Shown here: positions 7,373 to 32,693 of the stretch, piece after piece
Position numbering within the stretch: the first letter of the stretch is position 1
Layout: every line of letters starts with the position of its first letter
Made by a program: the position numbers and the translations under genes
NCBI GenBank assembly: GCA_031460175.1
Contig: JAVKGW010000010.1
Location: forward strand, 15,127 to 79,126
Direction of reading: 5' to 3'
Source of the DNA: Candidatus Sysuimicrobium tengchongense
GTDB lineage: Bacteria; Sysuimicrobiota; Sysuimicrobiia; Sysuimicrobiales; Sysuimicrobiaceae
Length of the DNA: 64,000 nt
The notes under the pieces: generated by a model
Database searches by the model: none
Told to the model about the DNA's origin: nothing
The model's input: only the letters and a program-made list of their open reading frames with translations

Positions 7373-10300
7373 CTACCACACGAATCGGCTCCGGAGGAAC
7401 ACGAGCCAGATGTTCCGGGTATCGTAAGTCAGGGTGAGGGCCAGATTGGGACTGAACCGGTACTCCAGGGACCAGATGAACTGCAGGGGATCCGTGAAGG
7501 TGGTGGTGAGGGCCAGGTAGAGGTTCTGCAGGAGAAGTCCCCCCACCCGCAACCGCAGGGGGCGCTCGGAGTCGTACTCGATGCGCAGCTCCTCCAATCC
7601 CAGAGCCCGTCGCACCCGGGCCGCGAACTCGCCCAGCACCAAGCGGCTCAACTGCTGCCGAAGCAGTTCCTCCACGTCCCCCCGAACCGCGGACGGAAGG
7701 CCAACTTCCCCGGCCAGGAGGGCCCCGAGCCGTTCAGGAGGAAGGGGGGGATCGCTGGTCAGCTGGACCTGCAGGTCTCCCGGCGGGCCCTCGAGGTTGG
7801 CGAACACCGTGACGCCTTGGACCTCCGTCCGGGCGCGGGCGGAGACAAAGGGCGTGGTCCCCCGGAAGCGCTGAAACTGGGCGGAGGCGGACTCCACTCG
7901 GAAGGTACGGCCCAGGGCGGTGAACTCCCCGTCCCTTCCCGTCACCGTACCCTCCAGCTCCGGCCGGGCGGGACTGCCCGCGAGGTGCAGCCGGCCCGAG
8001 ACCGCGAGGCGCACCGGTCCTGCCACCGCGAAGAGTCCCTCCCCGGCCACGAGCTCCAGATCCAACCGCAGGGGGACAAAACCGGTCCTCCCGGGGACAC
8101 CCCCGCCCTCCGCCATGGGGAGGATCACCTCTCCGGCCCGCAGGGTCACGCGGCCGCCGAGCCGGGGCTGTTGTACGGGGCCCTCCAGCAGCAGCCGCGC
8201 ATCCACAAGTCCCCGGTAGACCGGGGTCTGCATCCGTGCCTGAGAAGCCGTAAGGGAGAGATGGACCTGGTCGGGGCGGAGGGCCTGGAAGGCGAGCTCC
8301 CCGCTTGCCTCAACCACTCCCTCCCCTAGCCGGCCGTGCAGGTCCTCCAGCCGGGCGACCTGCCCATCGAACCGGATCCTCCCCGAGACCCCTTCCAGGG
8401 CAGGACGGAAGGCTCGGAACTGCACCCTGCCATCCGCAACCCCTGCCTCCCCCTCCCAACGGGGGGAATCCGGGGTTCCCGAGACTCGGAGGTGCGCGGT
8501 GAGGACTCCGGAGGCCGCCTCCACCAGGTGCGGGAACCAGAGATGCAAAATGCCCAGATCAACCCGGTCCGTGCTCGCCTCGAGGGAAAGGGGCCGGGAA
8601 GGGTCCACCCGGAGCGAGCCGGACCGCAGGGGAAGCCGTCCCGCGGCTCGGGCCCGGTATCCGCTTTTCTCCGCCAGCACCTGCTCCAGTACGAGCTCCC
8701 CCTCCCGGTAATAGGCCTGCCCCAGGACCCGATCCACCTGCACCCCCGCAATTCCCACCTCTCGGGCCTCCAGGGAGAGCCCGGCCACTGGTTCCTGCCG
8801 GGTCCCTGACAGCTGCAGGGTGAAGTCCAGGGTGCCGAGGAGTGGGGTACGGATTCCCGTAAGCGCTCGGAGGGCCTCCAGCTCGATCCCTTCCCCGCTG
8901 AGCTCGATGTCCGTCTCGCCCGTGAGGTTGAACGTCCCCTGAGCCCGGATGACACCCTGTCTGGCTTCGAGTTCCAGGGATCGGACGGTTACCGCGCGAC
9001 CCTGCAGTTGGAGTTCCCCCGCGGCCCTCCGGATGGGATATCCGCCAAGGTGGCCGTCCACGAGGGCGAGGGCCAAGGTCGCGGTGAGGTCCTCCATGGG
9101 GCCCCGGAGCGTGAGCCGGCCGGTGAGATCGCCGTCGGCGGAAAGAGGGCTACGGCTGAGGCGCAGGAGCGTCCCGAGCCGTCCGGACTCCGTCCGGAGC
9201 TGGAGGTCGAGCGTGGGGATCTCTTCGAGGCGAACCGTCCCCTCCAGGGTATACCGTTCGGAGCCCCGGGCCATCTCCAGGGGCCCCAGGGCGAGTACGC
9301 CCGGTCGCCACGAGACCACCCCCCCCGCGGTACCGAACCGCAAGCCGTTGAGGGCCAGATCCCGGGAGCGAACCTCCGCGGACACCACGGGCTGCCGCGG
9401 CGTCCCCCGGACGGTTCCCACGAGATCCACGCTTCCCTGCACCTGGATGGACGGCACGCGGAGCGCCCCCACTTCCTCCAGCCGGAGCCCGTGCAACGAG
9501 AAGTCCAGCTCCACCTGCTCCGGTCCCACCTGTCCGGCGAGGCGCAGATCTCCCCGATCCGTCTCCGCCTGTAGGTCCTCGATCGCCAGCCGGGCCGCCT
9601 CCCACCGGACATGCGCCCGGGCAGCCCGCACCCGCTCCCCGGCCACGGCAGCGTCTCGGAGGCGGAGGACGCCCTCTACCCTGGGATGCCGGGTGGTCCC
9701 CCAGACCCGCACCACACCCGAGACCTCACCCGTTACCGGAACCGGGAGCTCCAGGAACCGACCGAGCCGGCCTACCTCGGCCCCTTCCGTCCGCACGAGG
9801 AGATCGAGGCGCCCCTCTCCTCCCAAACCGACTTCCCCCTCCATGCGGTAAACGTCCTCCCCGTCCCGCACCGAGACCCCGCGCAGCTGGAGCGTCCGAC
9901 GCGTGAACACGAGCCCTGCCACGCCTTCCTGGAAGCGGATGGGTCCCATCTTCCCCCCCTCCACCCGCACCCGCCCCTCTCCCCGGGGATCCACCACCGT
10001 ACCCCCGATCCGGCCTGCGAAGTCCAACCTCCCCTCTACGGGGACCTTCAGGCCCAACAGGGTCCCCACGCGGGAGAGGGGGACGTTCCTGGTCACCGCG
10101 AAGAGGTCCAGGGTCCCCGCGGTGGACACGGTCCCCTGCACCCCAAGCCACGCCTCCCCGAGGTCAGCCGTGGCCGCTCCCAGCCTCAGCCTTCCCTCTC
10201 CGTAGGCGAAGGCCGCGTCAAGCCCGCGGAAGGGGACGCCGAACGCCTCCCCAGGTCCCGTGCGCAGCGCCCCCTGGACCCACACGCCCTCCGGCCCCCC

Positions 10301-11692
10301 CATGGCGAGGAGGATGCCCGTGGCGCGGAACCGGATGGGGGCCTCCAGGCCCAGGGTCCGGACCACCTCCGCGGGAACGTCCCGGAGGGAAGCCGCCAGC
10401 ACGAAGCGCGGACCCGAGGGGTCCAGGAGAAAATCTCCCCGCACGACCCCGCCGGAGAGGGAGACGCGGAGATCCGAGAGCGCCACGAGCCCGGAGTCGT
10501 AGGCGAAGCGGGATTCCACGGCTTGCAGGGACTGCTCCGCCACCACGAGGGAAGGGGACCGGAAATGCCCGGTGAGGCGCAGGGCCTCTGGGGGGCCTAC
10601 TAGGCGCACCCGACCACCGAGCCGGCCCCGGACGGGCAACGGGGTCGGCAATAGGCGCCGCAGGAGGCGGGTATCCAACTCCCTGGCGAGGACGTCCAAA
10701 TCCAGGAAGCCCCCGCCTGCCAACGACGCCTCGCCCCGCACGGTGGCCACCCCCCCACCGACCCCCACCCGGAGCCCCTGGAGCTCCAGCCTGGAGGTGG
10801 TGAGCCGGACGGGACCGTCCGCGACGATCCGGATGCCCTCGGGGAGGAAGGAAAGGCTCAGCGCCCGGAGCCGGAGGCTCCCACTCCAGTCCGTGCGGCC
10901 ACCTCCGCCCCTGTACAGCCGCACGGAACCGGAGACGTACCCTCCCTCCCACCGCACCCTGGGATGGGGCACGAGATAGGCTCCCCACGGGCGCGCGGGG
11001 ACCTCCTCCGCCCGCACTTCCAGGTCCAGGGCGCCCGCATCCCCGCGGATCCAACCCCTTGTCTCCACGGACGCGGGCTGCCGGGCAAGGGCCCGCCCGC
11101 GGAGGGAGAGCCGCACCAGGGGGAAGTCCTGCAGGAGGAATTCTCCGGACAGATCCTCCAGGGAGGCCCGGAAGGCAGGACGCCGGGAGGTGTCGAGGAG
11201 GTGCACCCGTCCCCCTCGGATGGCTACGGTTCCGGTGAAGGCCGGTTGCGCCGGGCCCGCGGGAGGCGCCCGGAGGAACAGGTCCTCGAGGTTCCACCGA
11301 CCCCTCTGATCCCGCTCCAGCAGGAGGAAAGGCCGTGTCAGGACGACCCGGCGCACCGCGGGCAGAACCCTCCGGGGACCCCACAGGAGGTCCTGGAGGA
11401 GGGCGTGCGGATCGAACTCCACGGTGACGCGGGGGATCTCCAGGAAGACGCCTTCCCGCAAGCTCCGACCGCGGGCCACCCGGACCTTCTCTGCCACCAC
11501 CCCGTGCCAGGGAATCCCCCGGAGGGAGCGGATCCTCACCTCCCGCCGGAGCGCTTGAGCCAGGGCACGCTCCGCGGCGTCCCGGACCGCTTCCTCCAAG
11601 GCGCCGCTGCGCACCAGGTAGACCCCGCTCCCGACCAGACCGAGGAACCCCGCACCGAGAAGGAACCCGATCCCGAGCAGGAGGCGTCGCAT
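7373..11692 (-). CDS. tamB: translocation and assembly module protein TamB (DUF490/AsmA-like), 1439 aa
   Basis: Single N-terminal TM (MRRLLLGIGFLLGAGFLGLVGSGVYLV), then more than 1300 aa of repetitive beta-rich sequence ending in the DUF490-like tail ...LQFIWSLEYRFSPNLALTLTYDTRNIWLVFLRSRFVW. It lies immediately upstream of bamA. Confidence 0.85.
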   Translation of the reverse strand: MRRLLLGIGFLLGAGFLGLVGSGVYLVRSGALEEAVRDAAERALAQALRREVRIRSLRGIPWHGVVAEKVRVARGRSLREGVFLEIPRVTVEFDPHALLQDLLWGPRRVLPAVRRVVLTRPFLLLERDQRGRWNLEDLFLRAPPAGPAQPAFTGTVAIRGGRVHLLDTSRRPAFRASLEDLSGEFLLQDFPLVRLSLRGRALARQPASVETRGWIRGDAGALDLEVRAEEVPARPWGAYLVPHPRVRWEGGYVSGSVRLYRGGGGRTDWSGSLRLRALSLSFLPEGIRIVADGPVRLTTSRLELQGLRVGVGGGVATVRGEASLAGGGFLDLDVLARELDTRLLRRLLPTPLPVRGRLGGRVRLVGPPEALRLTGHFRSPSLVVAEQSLQAVESRFAYDSGLVALSDLRVSLSGGVVRGDFLLDPSGPRFVLAASLRDVPAEVVRTLGLEAPIRFRATGILLAMGGPEGVWVQGALRTGPGEAFGVPFRGLDAAFAYGEGRLRLGAATADLGEAWLGVQGTVSTAGTLDLFAVTRNVPLSRVGTLLGLKVPVEGRLDFAGRIGGTVVDPRGEGRVRVEGGKMGPIRFQEGVAGLVFTRRTLQLRGVSVRDGEDVYRMEGEVGLGGEGRLDLLVRTEGAEVGRLGRFLELPVPVTGEVSGVVRVWGTTRHPRVEGVLRLRDAAVAGERVRAARAHVRWEAARLAIEDLQAETDRGDLRLAGQVGPEQVELDFSLHGLRLEEVGALRVPSIQVQGSVDLVGTVRGTPRQPVVSAEVRSRDLALNGLRFGTAGGVVSWRPGVLALGPLEMARGSERYTLEGTVRLEEIPTLDLQLRTESGRLGTLLRLSRSPLSADGDLTGRLTLRGPMEDLTATLALALVDGHLGGYPIRRAAGELQLQGRAVTVRSLELEARQGVIRAQGTFNLTGETDIELSGEGIELEALRALTGIRTPLLGTLDFTLQLSGTRQEPVAGLSLEAREVGIAGVQVDRVLGQAYYREGELVLEQVLAEKSGYRARAAGRLPLRSGSLRVDPSRPLSLEASTDRVDLGILHLWFPHLVEAASGVLTAHLRVSGTPDSPRWEGEAGVADGRVQFRAFRPALEGVSGRIRFDGQVARLEDLHGRLGEGVVEASGELAFQALRPDQVHLSLTASQARMQTPVYRGLVDARLLLEGPVQQPRLGGRVTLRAGEVILPMAEGGGVPGRTGFVPLRLDLELVAGEGLFAVAGPVRLAVSGRLHLAGSPARPELEGTVTGRDGEFTALGRTFRVESASAQFQRFRGTTPFVSARARTEVQGVTVFANLEGPPGDLQVQLTSDPPLPPERLGALLAGEVGLPSAVRGDVEELLRQQLSRLVLGEFAARVRRALGLEELRIEYDSERPLRLRVGGLLLQNLYLALTTTFTDPLQFIWSLEYRFSPNLALTLTYDTRNIWLVFLRSRFVW

Positions 11693-19790: not shown

Positions 19791-20408
19791 GTGAGCCGGA
19801 TCGCCATCACCCTGGAGATCGTGGACACGGGAGAGGACCTAGGGGCCCTACCCTGCCTTTTCTCCCTGGAGATCGGGGGGCAGCCCGTCCTGCTGCTCGG
19901 GGAGTGCGCGCGGTCCCAGGGGATCCCCTCCCACGACGCCTCCTACGGGACCTACTCCCTCTTCGAGGCCACTCAGGGTCTCCTCCTCACCCTCCTGGCG
20001 GACCATCATCCCGTCCTGGACCCCGAAGACCCCTACGCGGCCCCCCTCTTCGTGGCGGAGTGCGGCATGGACTGCTGCGGATACCACGACCTCGGCATCT
20101 ACCACCGGGGTGGGGCCATCGTGGTGGAGGTTCCAGAACGGGGCCAGCGCTACACCGTGGAGGCCGCGGAGTACGCGGCGGCGGTGATGTCCGCGGTCCG
20201 GGGATTCCTGCAGCTGGCATTGGGGGAGAAGCGGCTGCGGGACGATGAGGCCTGGCACCTGTACGATCACCTCGCGTGGCTGGTGCGGCGCGTGGCCCAC
20301 GACGGGCCTGTGTCCATCCGCCAAGTGTGTCGCAAGTTCCTCGACGAGGCAGAAGAACAGATCCAGCAGGCCACTCAGCCCGTACAGGCCGTGCAGGGGA
20401 CTCACTGA
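19791..20408 (+). CDS. hypothetical protein (205 aa)
   Basis: GTG start, with genome-typical codon bias and GC3. No recognisable family. Convergent with the next gene, with stops 4 nt apart. Confidence 0.45.
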   Translation: MSRIAITLEIVDTGEDLGALPCLFSLEIGGQPVLLLGECARSQGIPSHDASYGTYSLFEATQGLLLTLLADHHPVLDPEDPYAAPLFVAECGMDCCGYHDLGIYHRGGAIVVEVPERGQRYTVEAAEYAAAVMSAVRGFLQLALGEKRLRDDEAWHLYDHLAWLVRRVAHDGPVSIRQVCRKFLDEAEEQIQQATQPVQAVQGTH

Positions 20409-20412
20409 ACGC

Positions 20413-20847
20413 TTACCGCTCGTACCAGATGGCCTGCGGCCGGAGGTTGCGCTGGATTCCCAGCTGCGTGGCCATGCGGTTGGTCCATGCCACGAACCCG
20501 TCGATGATCTCCAGGCACTCCTCCTCCACCTCTTCCGGGCTCAGGGGACCGTATTGCAGGCGGGCCAGCATGTCGCCGATGGCGCTGCAGAAGGCGCTGA
20601 TGTCGTCCAGCAGCTCCCGTCCGATCCGAAGGCCCTGCAGGCTCATCCCCGTAGGACGGCGGGCCCCGTCCCCGGAAAGCCGCCGGCGCTGCTGCGTGGC
20701 CCACTCGTTCAGTTCGTCCAGTACGAAGTACGCGTCCTCCGGCCCCCGTTCCATCACCAGGGTCACGAACCCCTGGCAGGCCCGCCAGGTCTGATGGATG
20801 ATCCCCGCGAGATACCGCTTGTCCTGAGCCTCCAGCTTCGGCGGCAT
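20413..20847 (-). CDS. hypothetical protein (144 aa)
   Basis: ATG at 20847 (MPPKLEAQDKRYLAGIIHQTWRACQGFVTLVMERGPEDAYFVLDELNEW...) with coding-like composition. No family recognised. Confidence 0.45.
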   Translation of the reverse strand: MPPKLEAQDKRYLAGIIHQTWRACQGFVTLVMERGPEDAYFVLDELNEWATQQRRRLSGDGARRPTGMSLQGLRIGRELLDDISAFCSAIGDMLARLQYGPLSPEEVEEECLEIIDGFVAWTNRMATQLGIQRNLRPQAIWYER

Positions 20848-22475: not shown

Positions 22476-22985
22476 GTGATCGCACACGGGGAATTGCCGA
22501 GAAGCGGCCGCCACATCTTCGGAGTGGGATTCGCTGCGACCGCCACCACCCTGCTCGTCTCCCTCTTCACGGTCCTGTGGGGATTGGGGCGCGCCGTCAT
22601 GCATCCGGAGGCCACGGATTTCCTCACCCGGTGGTTCCTGGGTCTGTGGGACAACCTGGTGCTGGACCGCACACGGGCGGCCTTCAGCTGGTCCCTGGTG
22701 GCGTTTGCCCTCACGGGGATCCTCTACGCGTACCTCTACGCCCTCGCCTTCGGCCCCGTGTTCTACCGGGCGGAGGCCCTGGCCGCGCGGCCTTGGCTGT
22801 GCGGATTGCTCTTCGCGCCCGTCCCGTGGCTCCTGACCCTGTTCGTGACCTTGCCGCTTGTGGGTGCAGGGTTTCTGGGAAGTGCCCTCGCCTCCGGCGG
22901 GTTTGTCTGGCTAGCGCTCCTGGCCCATCTCCTGCACGGTCTATTGCTGGGCATCTGGTTTGACGCCACGGCCCGGCCGGGCTAG
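22476..22985 (+). CDS. hypothetical membrane protein (169 aa)
   Basis: Only the C-terminal part of the 546-aa table ORF 21345..22985 looks coding. GTG at 22476 preceded by GGAGGAG. Four predicted TM helices ([23 protein letters not shown]...). Divergent from ctaA, and convergent with tkt with a 4-nt overlap. Confidence 0.5.
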
Positions 22986-25033
22986 GTCTCCTCTAAGAGC
23001 TCCAGGCTCAACCGCTCAAGGCGATCCGGGGTGAACCCGAGCCGCTCCGCGATCACCGGGTAGGGCGCGGAGGCCCCGAACCGGTCCAGGGCCACGATCC
23101 GACCCCGGCAGCCCACGTATCGCTCCCACCCGAGGGGACTTGCCGCCTCTACCGCGATGCGGCGCGCCACGTGCGGAGGCAGCACGGCCTCCCGATACTC
23201 CCGGGGTTGGGTATCGAACAGCTCCCAGCACGGGAGGCTGACCACCCGGGCCCGGATGCCCCGGCGTACCAACCGCTCGTACACTTCCACGCACAGCGCA
23301 ACCTCGGATCCGCTGGCGAGGAGGATGAGTTCCGGAGGGCCCTCCCCGGAGTCCGCCAACACGTATCCTCCCCGGCGCAGGCCGCTTGCGGGCGCGTACC
23401 GGGCGCGGTCGAGGGTCGGGACCGGTTGCCGGGTGAGCACCAGAGCCACGGGGCCCGCGGTGTGCTCCATGGCCACCCGCCAGGCCTCCACGGTTTCGCC
23501 CGCGTCCGCGGGCCGGATCACGAGGAGGTTGGGGATGGCCCGGAGGGAAGGGAGGTGCTCCACGGGCTGATGGGTGGGGCCATCCTCGCCCACGAAGACC
23601 GAGTCGTGCGTGAAGACGTAGATGACGGGAAGCTCGCTCAGGGCTGCGAGCCGGATCGGGGGACGCATGTAGTCGCTGAACACGAGGAAGGTGGCCGCGA
23701 AGGGGCGCACCCCGCCGTGGGCCGCAAGCCCGTTCGCGATCGCACCCATGGCGTGCTCCCGGACTCCGAAGTGCAGGTTGCGGCCGCGGTAGTCCACGGG
23801 GCCGCCGCTACGGCCCTGAGGATCCCCGATGCGGCGCGCGGGGCTCTGGAAATCCCCAAGCCCCCTCATGGCGGTGTTGGTGGAGGGGTTGAGATCCGCG
23901 GAGCCGCCCACCAACCACGGCACGCGCGGCGCGATGGCATTGAGGATCCGCCCGCTGGCCGCACGGGTGGCGAGGTGCTCTCCCGCCGGGAAAGCGGGCA
24001 ACTCCCGGTCCCATCCTTCGGGAAGCTCGTGACGGTGCGCGCGGTGCCAGAGGGCGGCGAGATCCGGGTAGGCCTGGGCCCATGCCTCGAAGGTCCGTCG
24101 CCACTCCGCCTCCCACCGCTCTCCCCGCTCCACCGCCTTCCGGAAATGCCGCAGTGCCTCTTCCGGGACCGTGAAGGGCTCCTCATAGGGCCAGCCCAGG
24201 TTCCGCTTGGTGATCCGGACCCCTTCCTCTCCCAGGGGTGTTCCGTGGACCTCATAGGACCCCTCTTTGGGGCTCCCGTAGCCAATCCGGGTGTGGATCA
24301 GGATCAGGGAGGGCCGATCCAGCTCCTCCCGGGCCGCGCGGATGGACGCCTCGATGGCTTCGAGATCGTTGCCGTCCGGGACGTCCTGCACGTGCCATCC
24401 GTACGCCTCGAACCGCTTCGCCACCTCCTCCGTGAAGGAAAGGTCCGTGCTCTCGCTCAGGGTCACCCGGTTGCAATCGTACAGGTAGACGAGCTTGCCG
24501 AGCCGTAGGTGCCCCGCGAGGCTGGCGGCCTCCGCGGCCACCCCTTCCATGAGGTCGCCGTCCGAGACCATGGCGTACACGTAGTGATCCACGATCTCGT
24601 ACCCGGGACGGTTGAACACCGCGGCGAGGTGGCGCTCCGCGATGGCCATGCCCACCCCGTTCCCGAAGCCCTGCCCGAGCGGCCCTGTGGTCACCTCCAC
24701 GCCCGGGGTGAGGCGACGCTCCGGGTGTCCCGGGGTGCGGCTTCCCCACTGCCGGAAATTCCGGAGATCCTCCAGGGAGAGATCGTAGCCCGTGAGGTAT
24801 AAGAGGGCGTAGAGGAGCATGGAGGCGTGGCCCGCGGAGAGCACGAACCGATCGCGGTCGGGCCAGTCCGGGTTCTTCGGGTTGTGCTTCAGGAATTTCG
24901 TCCACAGGACATAGGCAGCGGGCGCGAACCCCAGCACCGCCCCCGGGTGTCCGGAGTTGGCCCGCTGGATGGCGTCGAGGGCCAACGTTCGGATGGTGTT
25001 GATGCACAGCTCGTCCAGCGCCCGGTCCTCCAT
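22982..25033 (-). CDS. tkt: transketolase
   Basis: A 683-aa product from the internal Met of ORF 22982..25234 ([44 protein letters not shown]...[13 protein letters not shown]...). ATG at 25033 with AGGAGG RBS. Confidence 0.92.
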
Positions 25034-25107
25034 CCCCGCCTCCTGGACCGTACTCACCCCTCCACGATAGCAGGAGCTCTCCGGATCCGGAACGAAAGCC
25101 GCAAACC

Positions 25108-27918
25108 ATGGCCGGTTTTTCGGAACCCGACCTGAACTGGGAAGCGGCCACGGAATCGGAACTGCGGGCACGGTTTGGCCCACCCACCCCGGAGCGGGTG
25201 GAGACCTTGAAGGACCTCCTGGACCGCCTCGCACACCGTGCCCCCGGAATGGCCCTGCGCGGCGCCCGCATCCTGGTGGCGTACGCGGCGTCCGGGGATG
25301 CCGCCTGCCGGGCGCTGGCCCAACTCGCCCTCGCCAATGCCCTCCTGTGGACGGACCGGATCCGGGAAGCCGTATCGGCCTACGACAAGGCGCGGATGTA
25401 CGCGGAGGAGGCCGCGGATCCGGTGCTCGGAGCCCGGTGCGGGATCGGGAAGATGGGAGCCCTCTTCCTCCAGGGACGCACGGAGGAGGCCCTCGCCCTG
25501 GCGGACGCCATCGAGCCGGTGCTGGCCGCGGCGGATCAACCGCTCCTCCTGGCCCGCGTCCTCAGCCAGCGGGCCACCGTTCTCAAGCACCGGGGAGACC
25601 TGGAAGGGGCCGCGGGCGCCTACGCCCGGGCCATCGCCCTCCTGCGGGGCGTGGAGGGGGGTGCTCTGGACCTGACCATCGCCCTCCACAACCTCGCCCT
25701 CGGCCTCCTGCGCCTCGGCCGGGGAGAAGAGGCTCTCCAGCGGCTGGAGGAGGCCCGAGAGGCTGCCCGGGAGGCCCGCAGCACCCTCTGGGAGGCCCGG
25801 GTTGCGGCCGCGGTCGGAGAGCTGGACACCCATCTGGGCCGGTATGCCCGGGCCATCGCCGCCTTCGAGCAGGCCGCGGAGCTGTACGAGCGGGTCGGGG
25901 TAGCCGCCACCGCGGCCATGTACCGGTTGCGGGCGGTAGAAAGCTGGCTGTACCTGGGCCGGTGGGAACGGGTGGAGCAGGAGGCCGGCGCGCTGGCGAA
26001 GGATCTCCATGCTCGGGGGTTTGCGGCGGAGGCCGCGCGGGCCCGCTATCTCCTGGCCCTGGCTTACCGGCAGGCCGGGCGATGGACGGAGGCGGAGGCG
26101 CTGCTGCGCCAAGCGACTTCCTCCTTTGCAAGCTCCCAGCGCACCCTGTGGTGGGCCGCCGGGCTCGCGGAACTGGCCGCCCTCCTCCTCCGCAGGGGAG
26201 CGGTGGAAGAGGCGGCGTCTCTCCTGCAGGAGGTGCGCGCCGAGGGTGCCCCGCAGGACACCATCGGGTTCCTGCGCGTCCTCCTGGTGGAGGCGGACCT
26301 GTACGCGGCACGGGGAGACCTGTCCGCGGCGGAGCGGGCCGCCCGAACAGCCCTGCGCGTCGGCCGGCGGCTTCGCCTGCCGTGGGCCTGTGCCCTCGCC
26401 CACCGCCGGCTCGCCCGGCTGAGCCCCTCGCCGGCGCGGCGGAGGGCTCATCTCCTAAGCGGGATCCTCCATGCCCACCGCCTTCTCGCGGCGGTTCCCG
26501 CGGACCTGCGGTGGAGCACCTACCGAGAGTTCCAGCAGCTGTACGGGGAAGGCCTGCGGGCCCTGGTGGAGGCGGGACAGCCGGAGCGAGCCTGGGCGGT
26601 GGCGCAGGGCATGAAGGCCCAGGGCATGGCCCAACTCCTCACCCGAGACCCCACGGCCCATCTGCGCGCCCGCTCCGCGTCCGAGGAGTCCCTCGTCGAG
26701 GAGCTGCGGCGCGTGCATACCCAGTACCGCGTCCTCGCCTCCAGACCCCTTGACCCATCCGTGGACCCCGCAGCCCTCAGGGCCCTGGAGCGTCGGGTCC
26801 ACGAGCTCGCGGAACGGCTCGCGGTCCACGGCACGGCCCTGGACGAGGCGGTCCTCCTGGGCTTCCCGCGTCCCCCGGAGCGGCCGTCCCTCGATCCCGA
26901 AACGGCCCTGGTGGAGTACGTGGCAACCCACGACGAGCTCCTCGCGTTCTGCCTGCGGGACCGGCGTGTTCGGAGCTTCCGGGACCTGGCGCCTTTGCCG
27001 GAAGTTCACCGACTCGCCCGCTGGCTCGGGCTTGGCCTGCACGCGTACGCCTCCGGCCACCTGAAACCGCAGGAGGCGCTTGCACAGATCACCCGGGTCC
27101 TCCGGGACCTCTACGCCCTCCTCCTACGGCCTATGGAGCCCGATCTGACGGGGTGCCGGCGGCTCATCCTCGCCCCGAGCGGTCCCCTGTTCGGGCTCCC
27201 CTTCCATGCCTTCCCCCGGGGGGACCGGTGTGTGTGGGAGGATTGGGAGGTGAGTTACATCCCCGCGGGCTCCCTCCTTCCCCTCCTGGACCGCCGGATC
27301 CCCGGCCGGGGACGTGCGGTGCTCTTCGCGAGCACCCACGGTGGTCGGCTCCCGCAGACCGTGGAGGAGGTGGCGCGGGTCGCCCGCTGGATCCCCGCCC
27401 GGGTGATCCGGGAGCCCACGCGCGAGGTTTTCCTGGCGGAGCTCCGCACTTGCGCGCTCATTCACTTCGCGGGCCACTGCGTGTTCCGGCACGAGGCACC
27501 GCTGCTGTCCGCCCTCCACCTCGCGGACGGTCCCCTCACCCTGCTGGACCTCCTGGAGGTGCCCGCACGGGCAGATCTCGTGGTGCTCAGCGGCTGCAGC
27601 ACCGGAGTCCACGCGGTGCTCCCGGGGGACGAGTTCTTCGGGTTCGCGCGGGCCTGGCTCCGAGCCGGGGCCCGGGGGCTGGTGCTTTCTCTATGGCCAG
27701 CGGAGGACCAGTCCACGTGCCAGCTCATGGAGGTCTTCTACCGGGAACTCCTGCGCGGCGCACCTCCCCCCGCGGCCCTGCGGACCGCGGCGCTCCAGGT
27801 GCGGGAGGGGTTCCCCCATCCCCTGCACTGGGCCGGATTCCTCTTCATGGGCTCTCCGAAACTCCGGCTGCAATCCGTTGAATTTCCGGAGACTCCAGGG
27901 AGGAGGGGAGGAGAATGA
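25108..27918 (+). CDS. TPR-repeat / CHAT-domain (caspase-like) protease, 936 aa
   Basis: ATG at 25108. The N-terminal about 600 aa is Ala/Leu/Arg-rich TPR-like helical repeat sequence. The C-terminal domain carries CHAT hallmarks: ...[17 protein letters not shown]..., catalytic His context IHFAGHCVF and catalytic Cys context [11 protein letters not shown]. Confidence 0.85.
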
Positions 27919-29321
27919 ACGGCCGCTGGCGGTATCTCGACGCGCACGTCCTCTTCGCGGGTCCCGCGGAGATCCTCTCCGCGCTGGAACGGGATCACCC
28001 GGTTCGATGCATCGCGTGCAAGACCACCCCTCGGCACGCTCTCGTCCCGCTCCGGGAGGGCCGCACCACCCGATGGGCCCGGGTCCCGATCCCCTCCTTT
28101 TCCATCTCCCCCTCCGGCTGGACCCTCCAGAGTTACGTGGTCGAACCGGACGACCTTCCCCCGCGCGACCTCCTGCGCCGGTTGCTCCGCGCCCGCGGCC
28201 CCCTGGACGCCCCCCTCCTTGGTTCCCTGGACTTCGAGGCGCGCGGCCAGGTGGACGGGGTGCACGGGAGTCCTACCCCGGATCAGGCCATCCGGATGCC
28301 GGAGGCCACGGAGGCGGAGTTCCGCACGCAGGTGGCCTTCGAGCGCATCGGGTTGCTGCGCATGGAGCGGGCATCGCACCGACCGCGGGGAGCCGGGGTG
28401 ACCGTGGTCATCCTGGACAGCGCCCCGGACCTGTACCGGGACGAGCCGGCCTTCGACGCGGGGCTCGTGGACGTGTACGTGGAGTGGCCCCACCGCCTCC
28501 CCGAAGACCTGCCCGCGCTGCGCACCGTAGAGGAGGTCGAGGAGGAGGGGTGCGGGCTCACCGAGCGCCGGCGGTACCGGGCCTCCTCCCCCCTCGTGGC
28601 CGGTGCGGACGAGATGGTCCGGTACCGGGCGCACCACGGGGTGATGATCGCCTCCCTCGTGCGCCGCATCGCACCGGAAGCGAACATCGTGCTCGTGCGG
28701 TTGCTGAACGGGGCGCTCGGGACCCTGACGGGGGACCTCATCGAGGCCATGCGCTGGGTGCGCCACCTGCGCCGGGTGCCCCATCCCTCCGGCCCGCGCC
28801 CCCTGGTGTACGGAAGCCTGGTGTACAACCTGAGCCTGGGCGTGGATCGGTCACAGCCGGAAAGCGTGCAGTCCTGTGTCCTGCTGTGGGCCACGGACGA
28901 GGCCGCCCGGGCAGGCGCGGTCCTCGTGTGTGCCGCGGGCAACCTCTCCGAAGGACGCCCGGAGAACTGCCTTGAGCCCGCGGCCTACGGGCACTTCGGG
29001 GATACCCTGATCGCCCGTACCCAGGTGATCCCCGTGGCCGCCAGCAGCTACGCATCCCCGGAGCGCTACGCGTGGTTCAGCAACGAGGCCCACTTCGCGG
29101 CGCCCGGCGAGGACCTCATCCTGGATTGCGGCGCGGAGGTGGCGGGAGCCCGGTATGTACGGTGGTCGGGGACTTCCTTCTCCTCTGCCCTGGTTACAGG
29201 AATCGTGGCCCTGCACCTCAGCGCGGGCCTTCCCCCGTACGAGGTCAAGCAGCGTCTGTGGGAGGATGCCCGTCATCCCCGATCCTGGGACGGCGTGCAC
29301 CTGGTGCAGACGGGTGTGTAG
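27915..29321 (+). CDS. intracellular subtilisin-like serine protease (peptidase S8) with about 165-aa N-terminal domain of unknown function
   Basis: ATG at 27915 overlaps the CHAT gene stop (ATGA), with a strong GGGAGGAGGGGAGGAG RBS. S8 catalytic triad motifs are present: VVILDSAPD (Asp), HGVMIASLV (His), AAGNLS (oxyanion Asn) and SGTSFSSALVTGIVAL (Ser). No signal peptide. Confidence 0.85.
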   Translation: MNGRWRYLDAHVLFAGPAEILSALERDHPVRCIACKTTPRHALVPLREGRTTRWARVPIPSFSISPSGWTLQSYVVEPDDLPPRDLLRRLLRARGPLDAPLLGSLDFEARGQVDGVHGSPTPDQAIRMPEATEAEFRTQVAFERIGLLRMERASHRPRGAGVTVVILDSAPDLYRDEPAFDAGLVDVYVEWPHRLPEDLPALRTVEEVEEEGCGLTERRRYRASSPLVAGADEMVRYRAHHGVMIASLVRRIAPEANIVLVRLLNGALGTLTGDLIEAMRWVRHLRRVPHPSGPRPLVYGSLVYNLSLGVDRSQPESVQSCVLLWATDEAARAGAVLVCAAGNLSEGRPENCLEPAAYGHFGDTLIARTQVIPVAASSYASPERYAWFSNEAHFAAPGEDLILDCGAEVAGARYVRWSGTSFSSALVTGIVALHLSAGLPPYEVKQRLWEDARHPRSWDGVHLVQTGV

Positions 29322-29403
29322 GACCGCCGTCAGCAGCCGGCCTTCACTCCCGTGTGAACGATCCGGGCATCCTTGATCGTAGAGGAAAAACGGAGGTGAG
29401 ACG

Positions 29404-29805
29404 GTGCGCAAGATGGGCGTACTCCTCCTGGTGTTGGTCCTGATGGCAGGGGCTTGGGCATGGAGGCCGGCCCGGGCGGCCCCTGCCCCCGCGGATCGAT
29501 TCGTCTGCCGGGATCCCGCGATCCGTTCCCAGATCGAGGCGGTCTACGACCGACACCGTACCAACCTGCGCAATGCCCGGCTGCGGGTGGAGGACGAGCG
29601 ATATGCCCTGCGGCGGCTGCTGCTCTCCCCACAGGCCACCCGGCAGCAGGTGGAGGCCCAGGCTGCGCGTCTGGCGGAGGCCCAGACGGCCCTGCAGCGG
29701 GCCCGGCTTAGCTTCCTCCTCGACCTCCGGGAGGGCATCCCCGCGGATCGCCGGGAACAGGTTCTGCGCTGCGTGCTGGGGCCTGGGCGGGGATTCCGAC
29801 GGTAG
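29404..29805 (+). CDS. exported Spy/CpxP/ZraP-like (LTXXQ-motif) periplasmic protein, 133 aa
   Basis: GTG at 29404, 7 nt after GGAGGT. Signal peptide VRKMGVLLLVLVLMAGAWAWRPARAAPA. Helical repeats with LSPQATRQQVEAQAARLAEAQTALQRARLSFLLDLREGIPADRREQV resemble CpxP/Spy. Confidence 0.5.
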   Translation: MRKMGVLLLVLVLMAGAWAWRPARAAPAPADRFVCRDPAIRSQIEAVYDRHRTNLRNARLRVEDERYALRRLLLSPQATRQQVEAQAARLAEAQTALQRARLSFLLDLREGIPADRREQVLRCVLGPGRGFRR

Positions 29806-29920
29806 TCGCCCCCCAGGCGGGCAGCCGTGATCTCCACCGGGCCATGCCGGGGCCCGATCGGATGAGGCCATCCGCCCCTTGACAGGAAAGGGGTCATCGC
29901 TCTAGCCTGCTTTTAGGGCC

Positions 29921-29958
29921 GCGACGCCCACCACAGGGTGGGCGTCGCTTTGCTTTTT
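29921..29958 (+). terminator. rho-independent terminator after the CHAT-S8-spy-like operon
   Basis: Perfect 12-bp GC stem gcgacgcccacc/ggtgggcgtcgc with loop acag, followed by tttgcttttt. Confidence 0.55.
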
Positions 29959-30083
29959 GGGGGGTATAAAACCCTGGTGGCCACGTTCTTCGTCCCCCTA
30001 CGGATTCTGGGCGGGTGCCTCGATCTATACCGCGTACAACCGCTGGATATGGCAGGCCGTGAAAGACGTGGGAGGTGAGGGCG

Positions 30084-31286
30084 GTGACGTGGGAAGCGTG
30101 GTTGGGGGTGGCGGCCTTCCTGGTGCTGTTCACCCTCTGGTCGTTTCTGCCCAGCAGGTTCCTGAGGCGCACGAGGGGAACCGCAGCGGAGACCCAAGCC
30201 AACGTTCCACCTGCCCCGCCGCCCGCACCGCCGGCCCGGGCGAGCTGGAACTGGGCTGGAGCGGGGGTGGAACTGCGACTGCTGCGCAATCCCGCCTTCG
30301 GTCACGGCGCCGATCCGAGGACGGTTCCCCGGTACTTCTACACGGTGCGCCTCGGCGGAGACGGGGAGGCACGCCTGCCCGTGTACTGGGACCCGCGGCC
30401 AGTGGCCTCCGACCCCCTCGTGCGGGAGGTGTACCGGGTGCGGGTGGCAGGGCGCTCCCTGGAGGCCGGTAACCTCCACCTGCTCGGCGAGGAGGTCCGC
30501 GCCGCCGTGGGGCGTCTTGTGGCCGCCGGGGGCCTGCCGCGGTTCTGGCTGGTGAACGGTACTTCCGCCGTCCCCGTGTACCGCGCCGGCGAGGTCTACG
30601 TGGCCCCCACGGACGGCCCGAGGCTTTGGGGGACCGACCTCGCACAGCTTCGGGCTCGGTATGCGCACTACGTGGCCTCCTGCAACGGGGGGGAGTGCGG
30701 GCCGGTGACCGTGGCTCTGCTGTCGCCGCAGGACCTGGACGTACATCTCCCGGAGGCGATCCTGGTGGGCCCTGCGCTCTGGATCCCGGTGTTTGCCACC
30801 GAGGGGCAGATGGTCGCCTTCGGCCCCGGAACAACCACCTGGTCGGCGCCGCAGGAGCCCGCGGGCATCCTGCCCCTGTGGGAGCTCGTGGCTTGCGAGC
30901 TCACCGCCTCGGGTCGCTTGACCATGCCCGCGGCCCTGTGGGCGATGGAGCTGTCGGAGACCTGCTGCCGCGGGCTTCTGAAGGCCGGCGAACCCACGGG
31001 GTTGATGCTGCGCTTTACCCGGTTCACCGGGCAAGGGGTAAGCCGCACGGCGCTACCGGTGCATCGCTGGCGCCACCTGTACTTCGCCAGCTGCCAGGAG
31101 GGCGCTTGCCTGCACATCGCCCCGGACTCGGAGACCCTGCGGGAGTCCCTCTCCGCGCACCTGACGGAGACGGGACTGGTTCGGGGAGTACAGGACGTGG
31201 CGCTGGAGGAAGGGAACGGGCCTGAACTCGGAGACGGCGTCCGAACGGGAGTGCCCAGGTTGAGTCTCGTCGCGTCGAACGCATAG
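30084..31286 (+). CDS. hypothetical membrane-anchored protein (about 400 aa), upstream partner of flotillin
   Basis: GTG at 30084 after GGGAGGTGAGG. N-terminal TM helix (WLGVAAFLVLFTLWSF), then a Pro/Ala-rich linker and a soluble domain with several Cys (SCNGGECG, ETCCRG, ASCQEGAC). Stop is 3 nt before the flotillin start. Confidence 0.5.
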   Translation: MTWEAWLGVAAFLVLFTLWSFLPSRFLRRTRGTAAETQANVPPAPPPAPPARASWNWAGAGVELRLLRNPAFGHGADPRTVPRYFYTVRLGGDGEARLPVYWDPRPVASDPLVREVYRVRVAGRSLEAGNLHLLGEEVRAAVGRLVAAGGLPRFWLVNGTSAVPVYRAGEVYVAPTDGPRLWGTDLAQLRARYAHYVASCNGGECGPVTVALLSPQDLDVHLPEAILVGPALWIPVFATEGQMVAFGPGTTTWSAPQEPAGILPLWELVACELTASGRLTMPAALWAMELSETCCRGLLKAGEPTGLMLRFTRFTGQGVSRTALPVHRWRHLYFASCQEGACLHIAPDSETLRESLSAHLTETGLVRGVQDVALEEGNGPELGDGVRTGVPRLSLVASNA

Positions 31287-31289
31287 GGG

Positions 31290-32693
31290 GTGAGGGAGGT
31301 GTCCTGGGTGTGGTGGGTGGTCGTCGCGGCGGCGATCGTGGCTGCCGCGGTGGTGTGGGCGGTGCGCTACACCAAGGTGGGCCCCAACGAGGTCCTGATC
31401 ATCTCCGGCCGACGGCGAACCGTCACCGGCCCGGACGGCCGGCGCAGGGTCGTGGGCTACCGGCTCGTGCACGGGGGCGGCACCTTCGTCTGGCCCATCA
31501 AGGAGAAGGTGCAGCGCATGTCGCTGGAGCTCATGACCCTGGAGGTCCGCACCCCGGAGGTGTACACGGTGAACGCCATCCCCGTGACCGTGGACGGGGT
31601 TGCCCAGGTGAAGATCCGCGGCGACGAGGACAGCATCGCCATCGCCGCGGAGCAGTTCCTCTCCCGCTCCCGGGAGGACGTGATGCGGACCGTCCTACAG
31701 ACCCTGGAGGGCCACATGCGGGCGGTGCTGGGGACCATGACCGTGGAGGACATCTACCGGGGCCGCCAGGAGCTGGCCCGGCGGGTCCGGGAGGCGGCCA
31801 GCGAGGACCTGCACAAGATGGGCATGGAGATCGTGTCCCTCACGATCCGCAACGTGACGGATACCCAGGGCTACCTGGAGGCCCTGGCCCGGCCCCGCAT
31901 CGCCCAGGTGAAGCGGGACGCGGTCAAGGGCGAGGCGGAGGCAGAGAAAGAGGCCCAGCAGGCCCGCTTCCAGGCGGAGACCGCCATCGCCCAGGCCCAG
32001 CGGGACATGGAGTTGAAGAAGGCGGAGTACGAGGCGGAGGTCAAGGCCAAGCGCGCGGAGGCGGACCTGAGCTACGACCTCCACCGCTACCGGATCGCCC
32101 AGCAGGTGAAGGCGGAGGAGATCCAGGTGGGGATCGTGGAGCGGGAGAAGCTTGTGGAGCTAGAGGAGCGGGAGGTGGCGCGCAAGGAGAAGGAACTGCT
32201 GGCCACGGTCCTCAAGCCCGCCCAGGTGGAGCGCCAGCGGACCGAGGTGCTGGCGGAGGCGGAACGCTACCGGCTGGAGGCGGAGGGCCTGGGCCGGGCG
32301 GAGGAGATCAAGGCCCGCGGCGCCGCGGAGGCGGAGGTGATCCGTCTCAAGGGTCTCGCGGAGGCGGAGGCCATGCGCAGGAAGGCGGAGTCCTGGAGCC
32401 AGTACAACGAGGCTGCGGTCATCGAGCTCATCGTGCGGGTGCTGCCCGAGCTGGCCCGGGCGGTCTCCGAGCCCCTCGCCAAGACCGAACGCATCGTGGT
32501 GGTGAACGCGGACGCGGCGGGGTCGGGGGTGTCCCGCGTCCCCGCGGACGTGGCCCGGGTGGTGGCGCAGCTGCCCACCCTCGTGGAGTCCCTCACCGGG
32601 GTGAAGCTGGAGCAGCTGCTGGAGCGCATCCCGAACCTCCGGGACCGGCCGGACCGGTCCCCGGAGTCCGCGCCCACCGCACCGCAGCCGTAG
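31290..32693 (+). CDS. flotillin-like SPFH/band-7 protein (FloT/YuaG-like)
   Basis: N-terminal TM (WVWWVVVAAAIVAAAVVWAV), an SPFH domain (EVLIISGRRR...TLEVRTPEVYTVNAIPVTVDGVAQVKIRGDEDS...) and a long EA-rich flotillin coiled coil (AEAEKEAQQARFQAETAIAQAQRDMELKKAEYEAEVKAKRAEADL...). Confidence 0.85.
   Translation: MREVSWVWWVVVAAAIVAAAVVWAVRYTKVGPNEVLIISGRRRTVTGPDGRRRVVGYRLVHGGGTFVWPIKEKVQRMSLELMTLEVRTPEVYTVNAIPVTVDGVAQVKIRGDEDSIAIAAEQFLSRSREDVMRTVLQTLEGHMRAVLGTMTVEDIYRGRQELARRVREAASEDLHKMGMEIVSLTIRNVTDTQGYLEALARPRIAQVKRDAVKGEAEAEKEAQQARFQAETAIAQAQRDMELKKAEYEAEVKAKRAEADLSYDLHRYRIAQQVKAEEIQVGIVEREKLVELEEREVARKEKELLATVLKPAQVERQRTEVLAEAERYRLEAEGLGRAEEIKARGAAEAEVIRLKGLAEAEAMRRKAESWSQYNEAAVIELIVRVLPELARAVSEPLAKTERIVVVNADAAGSGVSRVPADVARVVAQLPTLVESLTGVKLEQLLERIPNLRDRPDRSPESAPTAPQP

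Follow-up and report, generated by a model that had tools for sequence, protein, structure and literature searches.

A conserved TPR-CHAT and subtilase gene pair of Candidatus Sysuimicrobiota may form a regulatory protease module not described before

What might a bacterium do with two predicted cytoplasmic proteases of different classes that are encoded by overlapping genes? This question was raised by a 64-kb stretch of DNA (hereafter the window, meaning the whole stretch analyzed) from a hot-spring bacterium of the lineage Candidatus Sysuimicrobiota (CSP1-3). The flanking genes given in the original prediction, tkt upstream and flotillin FloT downstream, were both confirmed, and the probable true start of tkt lies at ~25035 on the minus strand (MEDRALDEL...). 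The short region between tkt and the first protease gene is the presumed promoter region of the pair; a sigma-70 consensus was not found within it. A 403-aa gene, absent from the original prediction, sits between the terminator described below and the flotillin gene, and the window also encodes TamB, which indicates an outer membrane. The first protease gene and its upstream region have the following features.

25036..25107, no strand: intergenic region between the divergent tkt and TPR-CHAT genes (sequence and ORF table)
25108..27918, plus strand: gene for a predicted TPR-CHAT caspase-like cysteine protease, 936 aa (ORF, Pfam, AF2, Foldseek)
25189-26637, plus strand: TPR superhelix, aa ~28-510
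26902-27852, plus strand: CHAT domain, aa 599-915
27475-27477, plus strand: catalytic His790 (IHFAGHC)
27595-27597, plus strand: catalytic Cys830 (LSGCST)

Pfam CHAT (PF12770) matched residues 663-916 of this protein at 1.9e-51 (175.7 bits versus a cut-off of 24), and several TPR families matched as well. His790 and Cys830 were invariant in alignments of 21 and 22 sequences with identity down to 26%, so that the intact His/Cys dyad claimed for the 936-aa protein was borne out on alignment. The AF2 model (pLDDT 85.5, pTM 0.80) combined TPRs with a caspase fold as in Csx29 and separase, and Foldseek returned Csx29 as the best structural match (8eey_B, 1.9e-16), along with separase (2e-15) and DdvA (4.7e-13). 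Neither a TM segment nor a signal peptide was found in the protein (maximum 19-residue hydropathy 1.37), which is therefore predicted to be cytoplasmic. Sequence and model thus predict a protease of the separase/Craspase type. In the type III-E CRISPR system Craspase, where Csx29 works with Cas7-11 and Csx30 is the substrate, Csx29 has the same TPR-plus-CHAT architecture and stays inactive until rearranged by a partner or signal; however, Cas7-11, a CRISPR array and Csx30/31 are missing here, and the partner is instead a likely subtilase zymogen. Identity with Csx29 was rejected (NCBIfam NF041237, 18.6 bits versus a cut-off of 300, with no arrays and no cas genes in the Pfam scan of window genes). 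Separase shares the helical repeats and CHAT-like caspase fold and is regulated by a bound pseudosubstrate, to which the linker of the subtilase may be compared by analogy, but it is eukaryotic, much larger and active in the cell cycle, and the window has no securin-like gene. DdvA of M. xanthus is a transmembrane anti-sigma protein with a periplasmic TPR-CHAT part (PMC11506125), and the likeness lies in the tie of TPR-CHAT to ECF sigma control, since distant relatives of the window's pair adjoin ECF sigma genes. DdvA, however, combines a zinc anti-sigma domain at its N-terminus with a TM helix and a CHAT site that is incomplete. The protein of the window is soluble with an intact dyad, showed neither a zf-HC2/anti-sigma match in Pfam nor a TM segment, and comes with a subtilase.

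The second gene begins within the stop codon region of the first.

27915..27918, plus strand: ATGA start/stop overlap of the TPR-CHAT and S8 genes, with GGAGG just upstream
27915..29321, plus strand: pro-subtilase S8 gene, 468 aa
27930-28247, plus strand: putative S8 prodomain, aa 6-111
28248-28319, plus strand: S8 linker, aa 112-135, containing HGSPTP
28263-28280, plus strand: invariant HGSPTP, aa 117-122
S8 catalytic domain, aa 136-468
28416-28418, plus strand: S8 Asp168
28635-28637, plus strand: S8 His241
28941-28943, plus strand: S8 Asn343
29175-29177, plus strand: S8 Ser421

The ATGA overlap, proposed as translational coupling, is real, and it is preceded by a Shine-Dalgarno sequence (GGAGG). 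Membership of the second protein in family S8 was evident from its profile match (Pfam Peptidase_S8, 2.1e-17, spanning only residues 249-452), its Asp/His/Ser triad and oxyanion Asn, and its subtilisin fold. Asp168, His241, Asn343 and Ser421 were invariant both in 24 orthologs and in a 9-sequence cross-clade alignment, and the best sequence-level PDB match was 7y6m, an intracellular subtilisin (1.3e-10). A signal peptide or TM anchor was not found (maximum 19-residue hydropathy 1.49), in agreement with the earlier description of a 468-aa subtilase with four S8 motifs and no signal peptide. An in-frame TGA at 27879-27881 excludes an upstream extension of the gene, the orthologs in the 24-sequence alignment all begin at the same place, and in the structure model residues 6-17 are one of the strands of the N-domain. 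An ordinary secreted subtilase was ruled out, with the start fixed by the in-frame stop and no signal peptide or TM segment present.

The N-terminal region, originally given as 165 unassigned residues, was resolved into a folded domain (6-111) and a linker (~112-135), with the catalytic part starting at ~136. The predicted fold and placement of the domain match those of subtilase pro-forms, and in the model it looks like a prodomain that lies over the active site where prodomains block. Since the domain is predicted to fold and sit as a subtilase prodomain does, the protein looks like a cytoplasmic zymogen. Pfam I9 and Fervidolysin_NPro gave no match in this domain, and its profile, searched against 1.84 billion representatives, recovered only its own cluster. 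The domain had been called novel; this holds for its sequence, which has no relatives outside its own lineage, but not for its predicted fold, which is of a known kind. Similarly, a routine propeptide behind a missed signal peptide had been named as the finding that would undo the proposal, and the predicted fold is indeed prodomain-like, but the signal peptide is absent. Linker residues 113-122 are predicted to be disordered, yet HGSPTP is invariant, and Gly118 and Pro122 are retained even in a clade with 30% identity. Bacillus ISPs resemble this protein in being cytoplasmic S8 enzymes with an N-terminal inhibitory segment, but their extension is short (~18 residues) rather than a folded prodomain of ~110 residues, and we know of no CHAT partner for them.

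Further comparison indicated that the two protease genes belong together as a conserved unit with tight coupling. Each of the 45 loci that carried a relative of either gene had the partner gene next to it, in a set gathered by similarity to the TPR-CHAT or S8 gene rather than an unbiased census, which spans at least 10 lineages and S8 identities down to 26%. The pairing, whose lack of conservation would have spoken against the proposal, therefore extends across genomes. Besides the Sysuimicrobiota loci, the set included L009-11, L040-41, L012 (Blastocatellia), L013, L014, L015 (Amycolatopsis), L042, L043, L045 and L046. Gene order and orientation of the pair varied among loci, and junctions in orthologous loci ranged from a 4-nt overlap to a ~30 nt gap. 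The one exception to the pairing was a TIR-S8 fusion; two remote S8 relatives were fused to TIR domains (P0141 and P0157). The S8 partners of L012-L014 have a signal peptide or TM segment, so that they cannot play the part of a cytoplasmic zymogen as the window's S8 would. A published description of the CHAT-S8 pair was not found in the literature searched. Within Sysuimicrobiota, the pair is fixed beside tkt among housekeeping neighbors, with synteny kept at 45-58% protein identity and a divergence resembling that of tkt itself.

Seven distant loci (L012, L013, L015, L042, L043, L045 and L046) had an ECF sigma gene adjoining the pair. A small soluble protein family with an 'LVFDS' motif was found in L012, L013, L015, L043 and L045, with a weak match in L042; L046 has a 151-aa ORF at the corresponding position. 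The family has a CarboxypepD_reg-like region at its C-terminus, and its member in L012 matched zf-HC2 at 8.6e-4, short of the cut-off set by Pfam. From these seven loci we defined a four-gene module of ECF sigma, soluble LVFDS anti-sigma-like protein, TPR-CHAT and S8, in which the TPR-CHAT and S8 proteins are homologous to those of the window at 26-31% identity. HMM searches for the ECF sigma and the LVFDS-type protein found neither of them, whether across all 64 kb of the window or in the 7-10 kb around the pair in any of the Sysuimicrobiota loci. The suggested sigma link of the window's pair runs through homology of the pair only.

These observations are consistent with a two-gene cytoplasmic protease module in which CHAT probably activates the subtilase, and whose linked sigma pair has disappeared from the Sysuimicrobiota lineage, a reading that we favor tentatively. 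TPR-CHAT and S8 would be co-expressed stoichiometrically and form a complex, with the TPR superhelix binding a partner or signal that TPR-CHAT reads. On the signal, a cleavage would remove or release the S8 prodomain; most likely CHAT would cut the S8 linker or prodomain, and the reverse direction is conceivable. A second protease would not be strictly needed, since subtilase prodomains normally autoprocess. The freed subtilase may then destroy a regulatory target. Because the pair of distant relatives sits with an ECF sigma and an anti-sigma-like protein, the ancestral output was most likely sigma-factor release via proteolysis of the anti-sigma inhibitor; in Sysuimicrobiota the target would be encoded elsewhere and the pair would stand alone beside tkt. 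A SAVED domain reportedly binds cyclic oligoadenylate in SAVED-CHAT, whose second protease is said to be caspase-like and which is said to act in CRISPR-linked defense. The SAVED sensor, the caspase-like second protease and the CRISPR context were not found here. The type III-B system, in which SAVED-CHAT is reported to activate PCaspase as a second protease, is nevertheless the nearest mechanistic precedent for a two-protease cascade (bioRxiv 10.1101/2023.06.23.546230). A broader version, that an undescribed cascade exists across several phyla in which CHAT licenses the zymogen by a cut in its conserved linker or prodomain, the subtilase destroys a soluble anti-sigma-type inhibitor and Sysuimicrobiota keep a stand-alone pair, seems possible but rather doubtful; ECF sigma factors would then be activated in a new way.

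PopC and PopD of M. xanthus suggest another arrangement, in which TPR-CHAT would serve mainly as a stoichiometric inhibitor or anchor in the cytoplasm that is degraded on stress (e.g. the stringent response), after which the subtilase is exported. We consider this unlikely, and the same holds for its sequel, in which non-classical export would let the enzyme cut a surface or periplasmic protein. PopD may have a CHAT domain. PopC is a 50.8-kDa subtilisin-like protein that lacks a signal peptide and whose N-terminal part has no recognizable domains, and PopD, encoded in the same operon, binds PopC and keeps it from being secreted as long as PopD has not been degraded (PMC6434023, PMC4320627). 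The window S8 fits this description in size and layout, and both systems have a signal-peptide-less subtilisin of ~50 kDa with a co-operonic controlling partner (PMC6434023), although the order is reversed (popC then popD). In some relatives of the pair the S8 partner is indeed a secreted protein, and TamB points to an outer membrane. However, a pure inhibitor would have no need of the His/Cys dyad that CHAT retains unchanged across phyla, and homology to PopC was not demonstrated, as no Myxococcus-named match appeared in the search for S8 relatives.

It had also been proposed that the unit belongs with programmed cell death or anti-phage systems. In such a cascade, infection would trigger TPR-CHAT, TPR-CHAT would switch on the subtilase, and the subtilase would break down essential proteins, killing or arresting the cell. 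CHAT proteases do act in the Craspase and SAVED-CHAT cascades, and in bacterial and fungal gasdermin-protease operons and in Borvo, CHAT or S8 proteases activate cell-death defense. Besides the two remote TIR-S8 relatives, a partial, weak PADLOC 'subtilase' match (3.7e-5) fits such a role. However, gasdermin operons consist of one protease plus a gasdermin, whereas here neither a gasdermin nor a significant match to any system of PADLOC-DB 2.0 (Borvo, gasdermin, Iet etc.) was found (BovA 0.023, TPR 0.055), and the two downstream proteins had no PADLOC match. Effector genes, CRISPR arrays, tRNAs and flanking repeats were not found at the locus, nor were cas genes in the Pfam scan of window genes, defense genes around the pair in Sysuimicrobiota, or viral contigs carrying the pair. 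The fixed tkt-side position, conserved synteny and housekeeping neighbors also speak against this proposal, as does the linkage of distant relatives to sigma/anti-sigma rather than defense genes. The anti-phage framing thus gained little support, and we regard it as quite improbable; the pair looks more like a regulatory protease module not described so far than like a phage-defense island.

Downstream of the pair are two further features on the same strand.

29404..29805, plus strand: gene for a small exported Metal_resist (CpxP/Spy-like) protein, 133 aa (Pfam PF13801, 3.8e-8)
29921..29958, plus strand: intrinsic terminator, 12-bp GC-rich stem, 4-nt loop, U-tract (hairpin 29921-29948)

The 133-aa protein has a hydrophobic N-terminus, and we take Metal_resist to be a CpxP/Spy-like family. 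The gap between the S8 gene and the small gene is 82 nt and has no terminator-like site, and the terminator (-30.5 kcal/mol, z = -4.96), which is kept in L016 and L025, would end a transcript extending through the small gene. The small gene directly follows S8 only in L016, L024 and L025 (87-92% S8 identity). Elsewhere it lies 2.6-9 kb off behind ABC transporter or glutamate dehydrogenase blocks (L001/L002, L029 and L039) or is absent, both from the remaining Sysuimicrobiota flanks examined and from beside every distant CHAT-S8 pair; in loci of the L003 type, EF-P follows S8. Because it stands directly behind S8 only in the closest relatives, the gene lies outside the unit; it is possibly co-transcribed here, but its membership of the module is not conserved. 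Both the Spy-like gene and the strong terminator predicted originally are therefore present, but neither belongs to the conserved unit, and of the undescribed protease-cascade or stress module it was the coupled pair that stood. A three-gene envelope-stress operon, in which TPR-CHAT, S8 and a Spy-like chaperone form a protease-activated module, agrees with the shared strand, the terminator-free gap, the single strong terminator and the arrangement kept in the three closest loci, but this comparison largely refutes it and makes it very improbable.

If the coupling of CHAT and subtilase is functional, it would be a second bacterial example of the caspase-like CHAT class controlling another protease class, and cytoplasmic prodomain-bearing subtilases would gain a defined activator. 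With regard to annotation, the pair argues against taking every CHAT or S8 gene pair for phage defense. Finally, the four-gene version occurs in Acidobacteriota and Actinomycetota, as far as its taxa are known, and also on unassigned metagenome contigs. It offers a genetically tractable entry point, e.g. in Amycolatopsis, and suggests a route of ECF sigma activation that may operate without the usual membrane site-1/site-2 proteases.

All three open reading frames of the original prediction, a TPR-CHAT protease, an S8 subtilase and a small Spy/CpxP-like protein, were present in the window, and their codon-position G+C pattern was that of real genes. The features were as follows.

25108–27918 (+), 936-aa TPR-CHAT protein; Pfam CHAT 1.9e-51 at residues 663–916, plus several TPR families
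27915–29321 (+), 468-aa S8 subtilase; Pfam Peptidase_S8 2.1e-17, match limited to residues 249–452
29404–29805 (+), 133-aa Spy/CpxP-like protein; Pfam Metal_resist PF13801, 3.8e-8
29921–29948, strong terminator-like hairpin; −30.5 kcal/mol, z = −4.96

The S8 start codon was well defined. Reading in frame, a TGA blocks any extension 11 codons before it, a GGAGG sits just ahead of the ATG, and ATGA serves as both the S8 start and the CHAT stop. Hydropathy profiles revealed no hydrophobic N-terminus or TM-like segment in either protease; such a segment was present in the 133-aa protein and in the next downstream 403-aa protein. G+C content was 68–72% throughout the window with no compositional break where the pair sits, and a scan detected no sigma-70 promoter upstream of the pair. 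The longest tkt ORF (22982–25234, minus strand, 750 aa) overran the TPR-CHAT start. Judged against 683–697-aa orthologues, translation of tkt probably begins at the MEDRALDEL Met, near 25035, which would leave a divergent intergenic region of ~70 nt before TPR-CHAT.

The CHAT gene adjoined the S8 gene in all of the first 43 loci fetched, whose ORFs were searched with HMMs built from our own alignments; since loci were picked by similarity to either gene, this count reflects co-inheritance of these two families and no general CHAT-S8 rule. S8 relatives of 26–31% identity (L009–11, L040–41, L042 and L043) all had a TPR-CHAT neighbour, as did two further remote S8 relatives (L045 and L046). Similarly, TPR-CHAT relatives of 27–31% identity had an S8 neighbour in 4 of 4 loci looked up: L012 (Blastocatellia), L013, L014 and L015 (Amycolatopsis). 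The sole sampled exception to this adjacency was a TIR-S8 fusion in locus L044. Gene order and orientation differed among loci (CHAT then S8, S8 then CHAT, or divergent), and the adjacency therefore does not stem from one inherited arrangement; at the CHAT-S8 junction the two genes overlapped by 4 nt at one extreme and stood ~30 nt apart at the other. Within Sysuimicrobiota, the layout consisted of TerC, two conserved hypothetical genes, CtaA and tkt (minus strand), then CHAT and S8 (plus strand), and it held while protein identities dropped to 45–58%, similar to tkt. The proposal of a real, conserved two-protease unit was thus borne out by adjacency in all sampled pair loci. The module is not uniform: the S8 partners in L012–L014 have either a signal peptide or a TM segment.

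With regard to the TPR-CHAT protein, the catalytic dyad had been read as intact, and His790 (IHFAGHC) and Cys830 (LSGCST) were invariant in 21–22 aligned sequences with identity down to 26%, which argues that CHAT catalysis matters beyond binding. The AF2 model was confident (pLDDT 85.5, pTM 0.80) and contained paired TPR-like helices between residue 28 and ~510, two more long helices, a disordered connector (574–598) and an alpha/beta CHAT domain (599–915) with a disordered loop directly after the catalytic Cys. Csx29 of Craspase was the best structural match (1.9e-16), followed by human separase at 2e-15 and DdvA, an anti-sigma factor, at 4.7e-13. Membership in the Csx29 family was rejected, since the protein scored 18.6 bits where the family cut-off is 300. 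In GCA_938028835.1 (L001, 7209–9999) the TPR-CHAT gene was broken into two ORFs of 632 and 306 aa, and in a near-identical Logan contig (L002, 7210–9999) it was intact (929 aa); the split is probably an assembly frameshift and not a pseudogene. TPR and CHAT likewise lay on separate ORFs in L045.

In the subtilase, Asp168, His241, Asn343 and Ser421 were invariant in 24 orthologues and remained so when the 26–31%-identity clades were added. Its AF2 model (pLDDT 75, pTM 0.84) had three parts: an N-terminal domain (residues 6–111, beta-alpha-beta-beta-beta-beta-alpha-beta), a linker of low confidence (113–122) and the catalytic domain. The N-terminal domain had been considered novel. It matched no Pfam propeptide family, and its profile, searched against 1.84 billion representatives, recovered its own 50%-identity cluster only, so that sequence gives no family assignment; by predicted fold and placement, it looks like a prodomain rather than a new kind of domain. 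The disordered linker bears the invariant motif HGSPTP, and Gly118 and Pro122 were kept in the 30%-identical clade, there as KGVGSPD. As modelled, the protein looks like a cytoplasmic zymogen whose N-domain resembles a prodomain and whose flexible linker is conserved. Its nearest solved sequence relative was the intracellular serine protease 7y6m (1.3e-10), and an ordinary secreted protease, which had been raised as a competing possibility, does not apply to a protein that lacks a hydrophobic N-terminus. A separase-like ExxR site in the N-domain, LDxE[AV]RGQ, was dropped as a CHAT cut site because some orthologues have Leu, Ala or Thr in place of its Arg. A G-x-P-T-P-[DE] motif was common to both proteins, as FGPPTPE near the CHAT N-terminus (25174–25194) and HGSPTPD in the S8 linker (28263–28283); it was invariant in S8 but not retained by more distant CHAT orthologues, and may be due to chance or be a shared docking or cleavage motif.

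Distant relatives of the pair had additional neighbours. An ECF sigma factor adjoined the pair in L012, L013, L015, L042, L043, L045 and L046, usually with a small protein beside it that lacks a TM segment. These small proteins have an LVFDS motif in common, and their C-terminal regions match CarboxypepD_reg weakly; the one in L012 also contained an HxxxCxxC segment and matched zf-HC2 at 8.6e-4, below the Pfam cut-off. Our own HMM found this LVFDS family in L012, L013, L015, L043 and L045, with a weak signal in L042; in L046, a 151-aa ORF in the same position is a candidate by position. These sequences suggest that the LVFDS-type protein is a soluble anti-sigma factor, and its presence with the ECF sigma factor beside the pair points to a four-gene sigma/anti-sigma/CHAT/S8 unit in those lineages. 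The ECF sigma factors of these loci shared a C-terminal GSIGPTRxRCLE-type signature. Our HMMs detected neither the sigma factor nor the LVFDS-type protein in the window itself or at any of the Sysuimicrobiota loci, and the bare pair also occurred in L009–11 and L040–41. Full-text literature searches found no description of the ECF/CHAT/S8 unit or the CHAT-S8 pair, and the main text of the ECF reclassification paper made no mention of CHAT or subtilases. The component domains are already known, as is the concept of protease partners under regulation; the TPR-CHAT/pro-subtilase module and its four-gene ECF version were not found described.

At the sequence level, these comparisons showed two intact proteases, both predicted to be cytoplasmic, that are co-inherited across phyla, and the overlapping genes showed that they would be co-expressed. 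The likelihood that they form a general two-protease regulatory module falls just short of even, and a specific cascade from CHAT to subtilase to anti-sigma factor is a tentative and somewhat doubtful proposal. In such a module, the TPR-CHAT protein and the subtilase would form a complex, and cleavage would free the subtilase, most simply by CHAT cutting its linker or prodomain. The freed subtilase would remove a regulatory protein, which in the four-gene relatives might plausibly be the soluble anti-sigma-like protein. In the reverse option, the subtilase would cut the disordered 574–598 connector and free the CHAT domain. A different arrangement is retention and release as in PopC/PopD, where PopD may carry a CHAT domain. 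PopC is described as a 50.8-kDa subtilisin with no signal peptide and an unassigned N-terminal part, retained by PopD, which its operon also encodes (PMC6434023), an attractive parallel to the subtilase of our pair; a third homologue search with S8 returned no named Myxococcus protein, and we consider this arrangement unlikely.

S8 orthologues of 52–92% identity were derived only from hot-spring and sediment MAGs, classified as Armatimonadota in older records and as Candidatus Sysuimicrobiota (formerly CSP1-3, a phylum described in PMC11604079) among GTDB species representatives, with names such as Candidatus Sysuimicrobium calidum and Candidatus Tepidifontimicrobium. The pair was surrounded by housekeeping genes, including TamB, a GlmU-like transferase, UDP-GlcNAc 2-epimerase, TerC, CtaA, transketolase, flotillin FloT, glutamine synthetase and thioredoxin-like proteins. 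No tRNAs, CRISPR-like arrays, flanking direct or inverted repeats or tandem-repeat signs of a mobile element were found, and an Rfam scan of the whole window gave no matches. These surroundings bear on the suggested defence role. For an anti-phage protease cascade, the literature offers precedents in Craspase, SAVED-CHAT to PCaspase and gasdermin proteases, and a hint came from two remote S8 relatives, P0141 and P0157 (L044, 2765–4546), which are fused to TIR domains (PF01582/PF13676); L044 had small ORFs without annotation and no CHAT gene. However, fixed synteny, ordinary divergence and housekeeping neighbours were observed at our locus, no effector was present, PADLOC gave nothing significant for four proteins, and none of the viral contigs scanned with the S8 profile carried a relative. 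A defence role is therefore unsupported and the cascade quite unlikely.

Two adjacent genes beside TerC, 19791–20408 (+, 205 aa) and 20413–20847 (−, 144 aa), had no Pfam match and were 64–99% conserved across the lineage, above tkt or the protease pair. On the other side of the protease pair, the 403-aa gene (30075–31286, +) encodes a protein with an N-terminal membrane anchor and ends 4 nt ahead of the FloT gene (31290–32693). Its product had no match in Pfam, NCBIfam or PADLOC and may be an uncharacterised flotillin partner; the arrangement was kept in L025, and the protein was also found in L016.

The Spy-like gene stood immediately after S8 in three loci alone, L016, L024 and L025 (87–92% S8 identity). 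It lay 2.6–9 kb off, behind unrelated genes, in L001/L002, L029 and L039, and the flanks of all other Sysuimicrobiota loci and of every distant locus yielded no copy. Its proposed membership in the unit is contradicted by this distribution, by which the gene is a bystander, and a three-gene stress operon that includes it is highly improbable. In the 3' UTR of the Spy-like gene, ~85 nt (29878–29958) were near-invariant in L016 and L025, and the surrounding intergenic DNA was unalignable with both. Within this element, a perfect TTGACA is separated from TAGCCT by an 18-nt spacer, and a 12-bp terminator hairpin that varies in the loop only comes next; the element had no Rfam match and was absent downstream of more distant homologues (L001, L029). 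CpxQ is a small RNA derived from the cpxP 3' UTR. The element could be a 3' UTR-derived small RNA, its own tiny transcript, or a leader for the 403-aa and flotillin genes. Further upstream in the window, a 1439-aa TamB/DUF748 protein (7373–11692, minus strand) indicates an outer membrane, and hence a diderm envelope, for this uncultivated lineage, which is relevant to the presumed site of action of the exported Spy-like protein.
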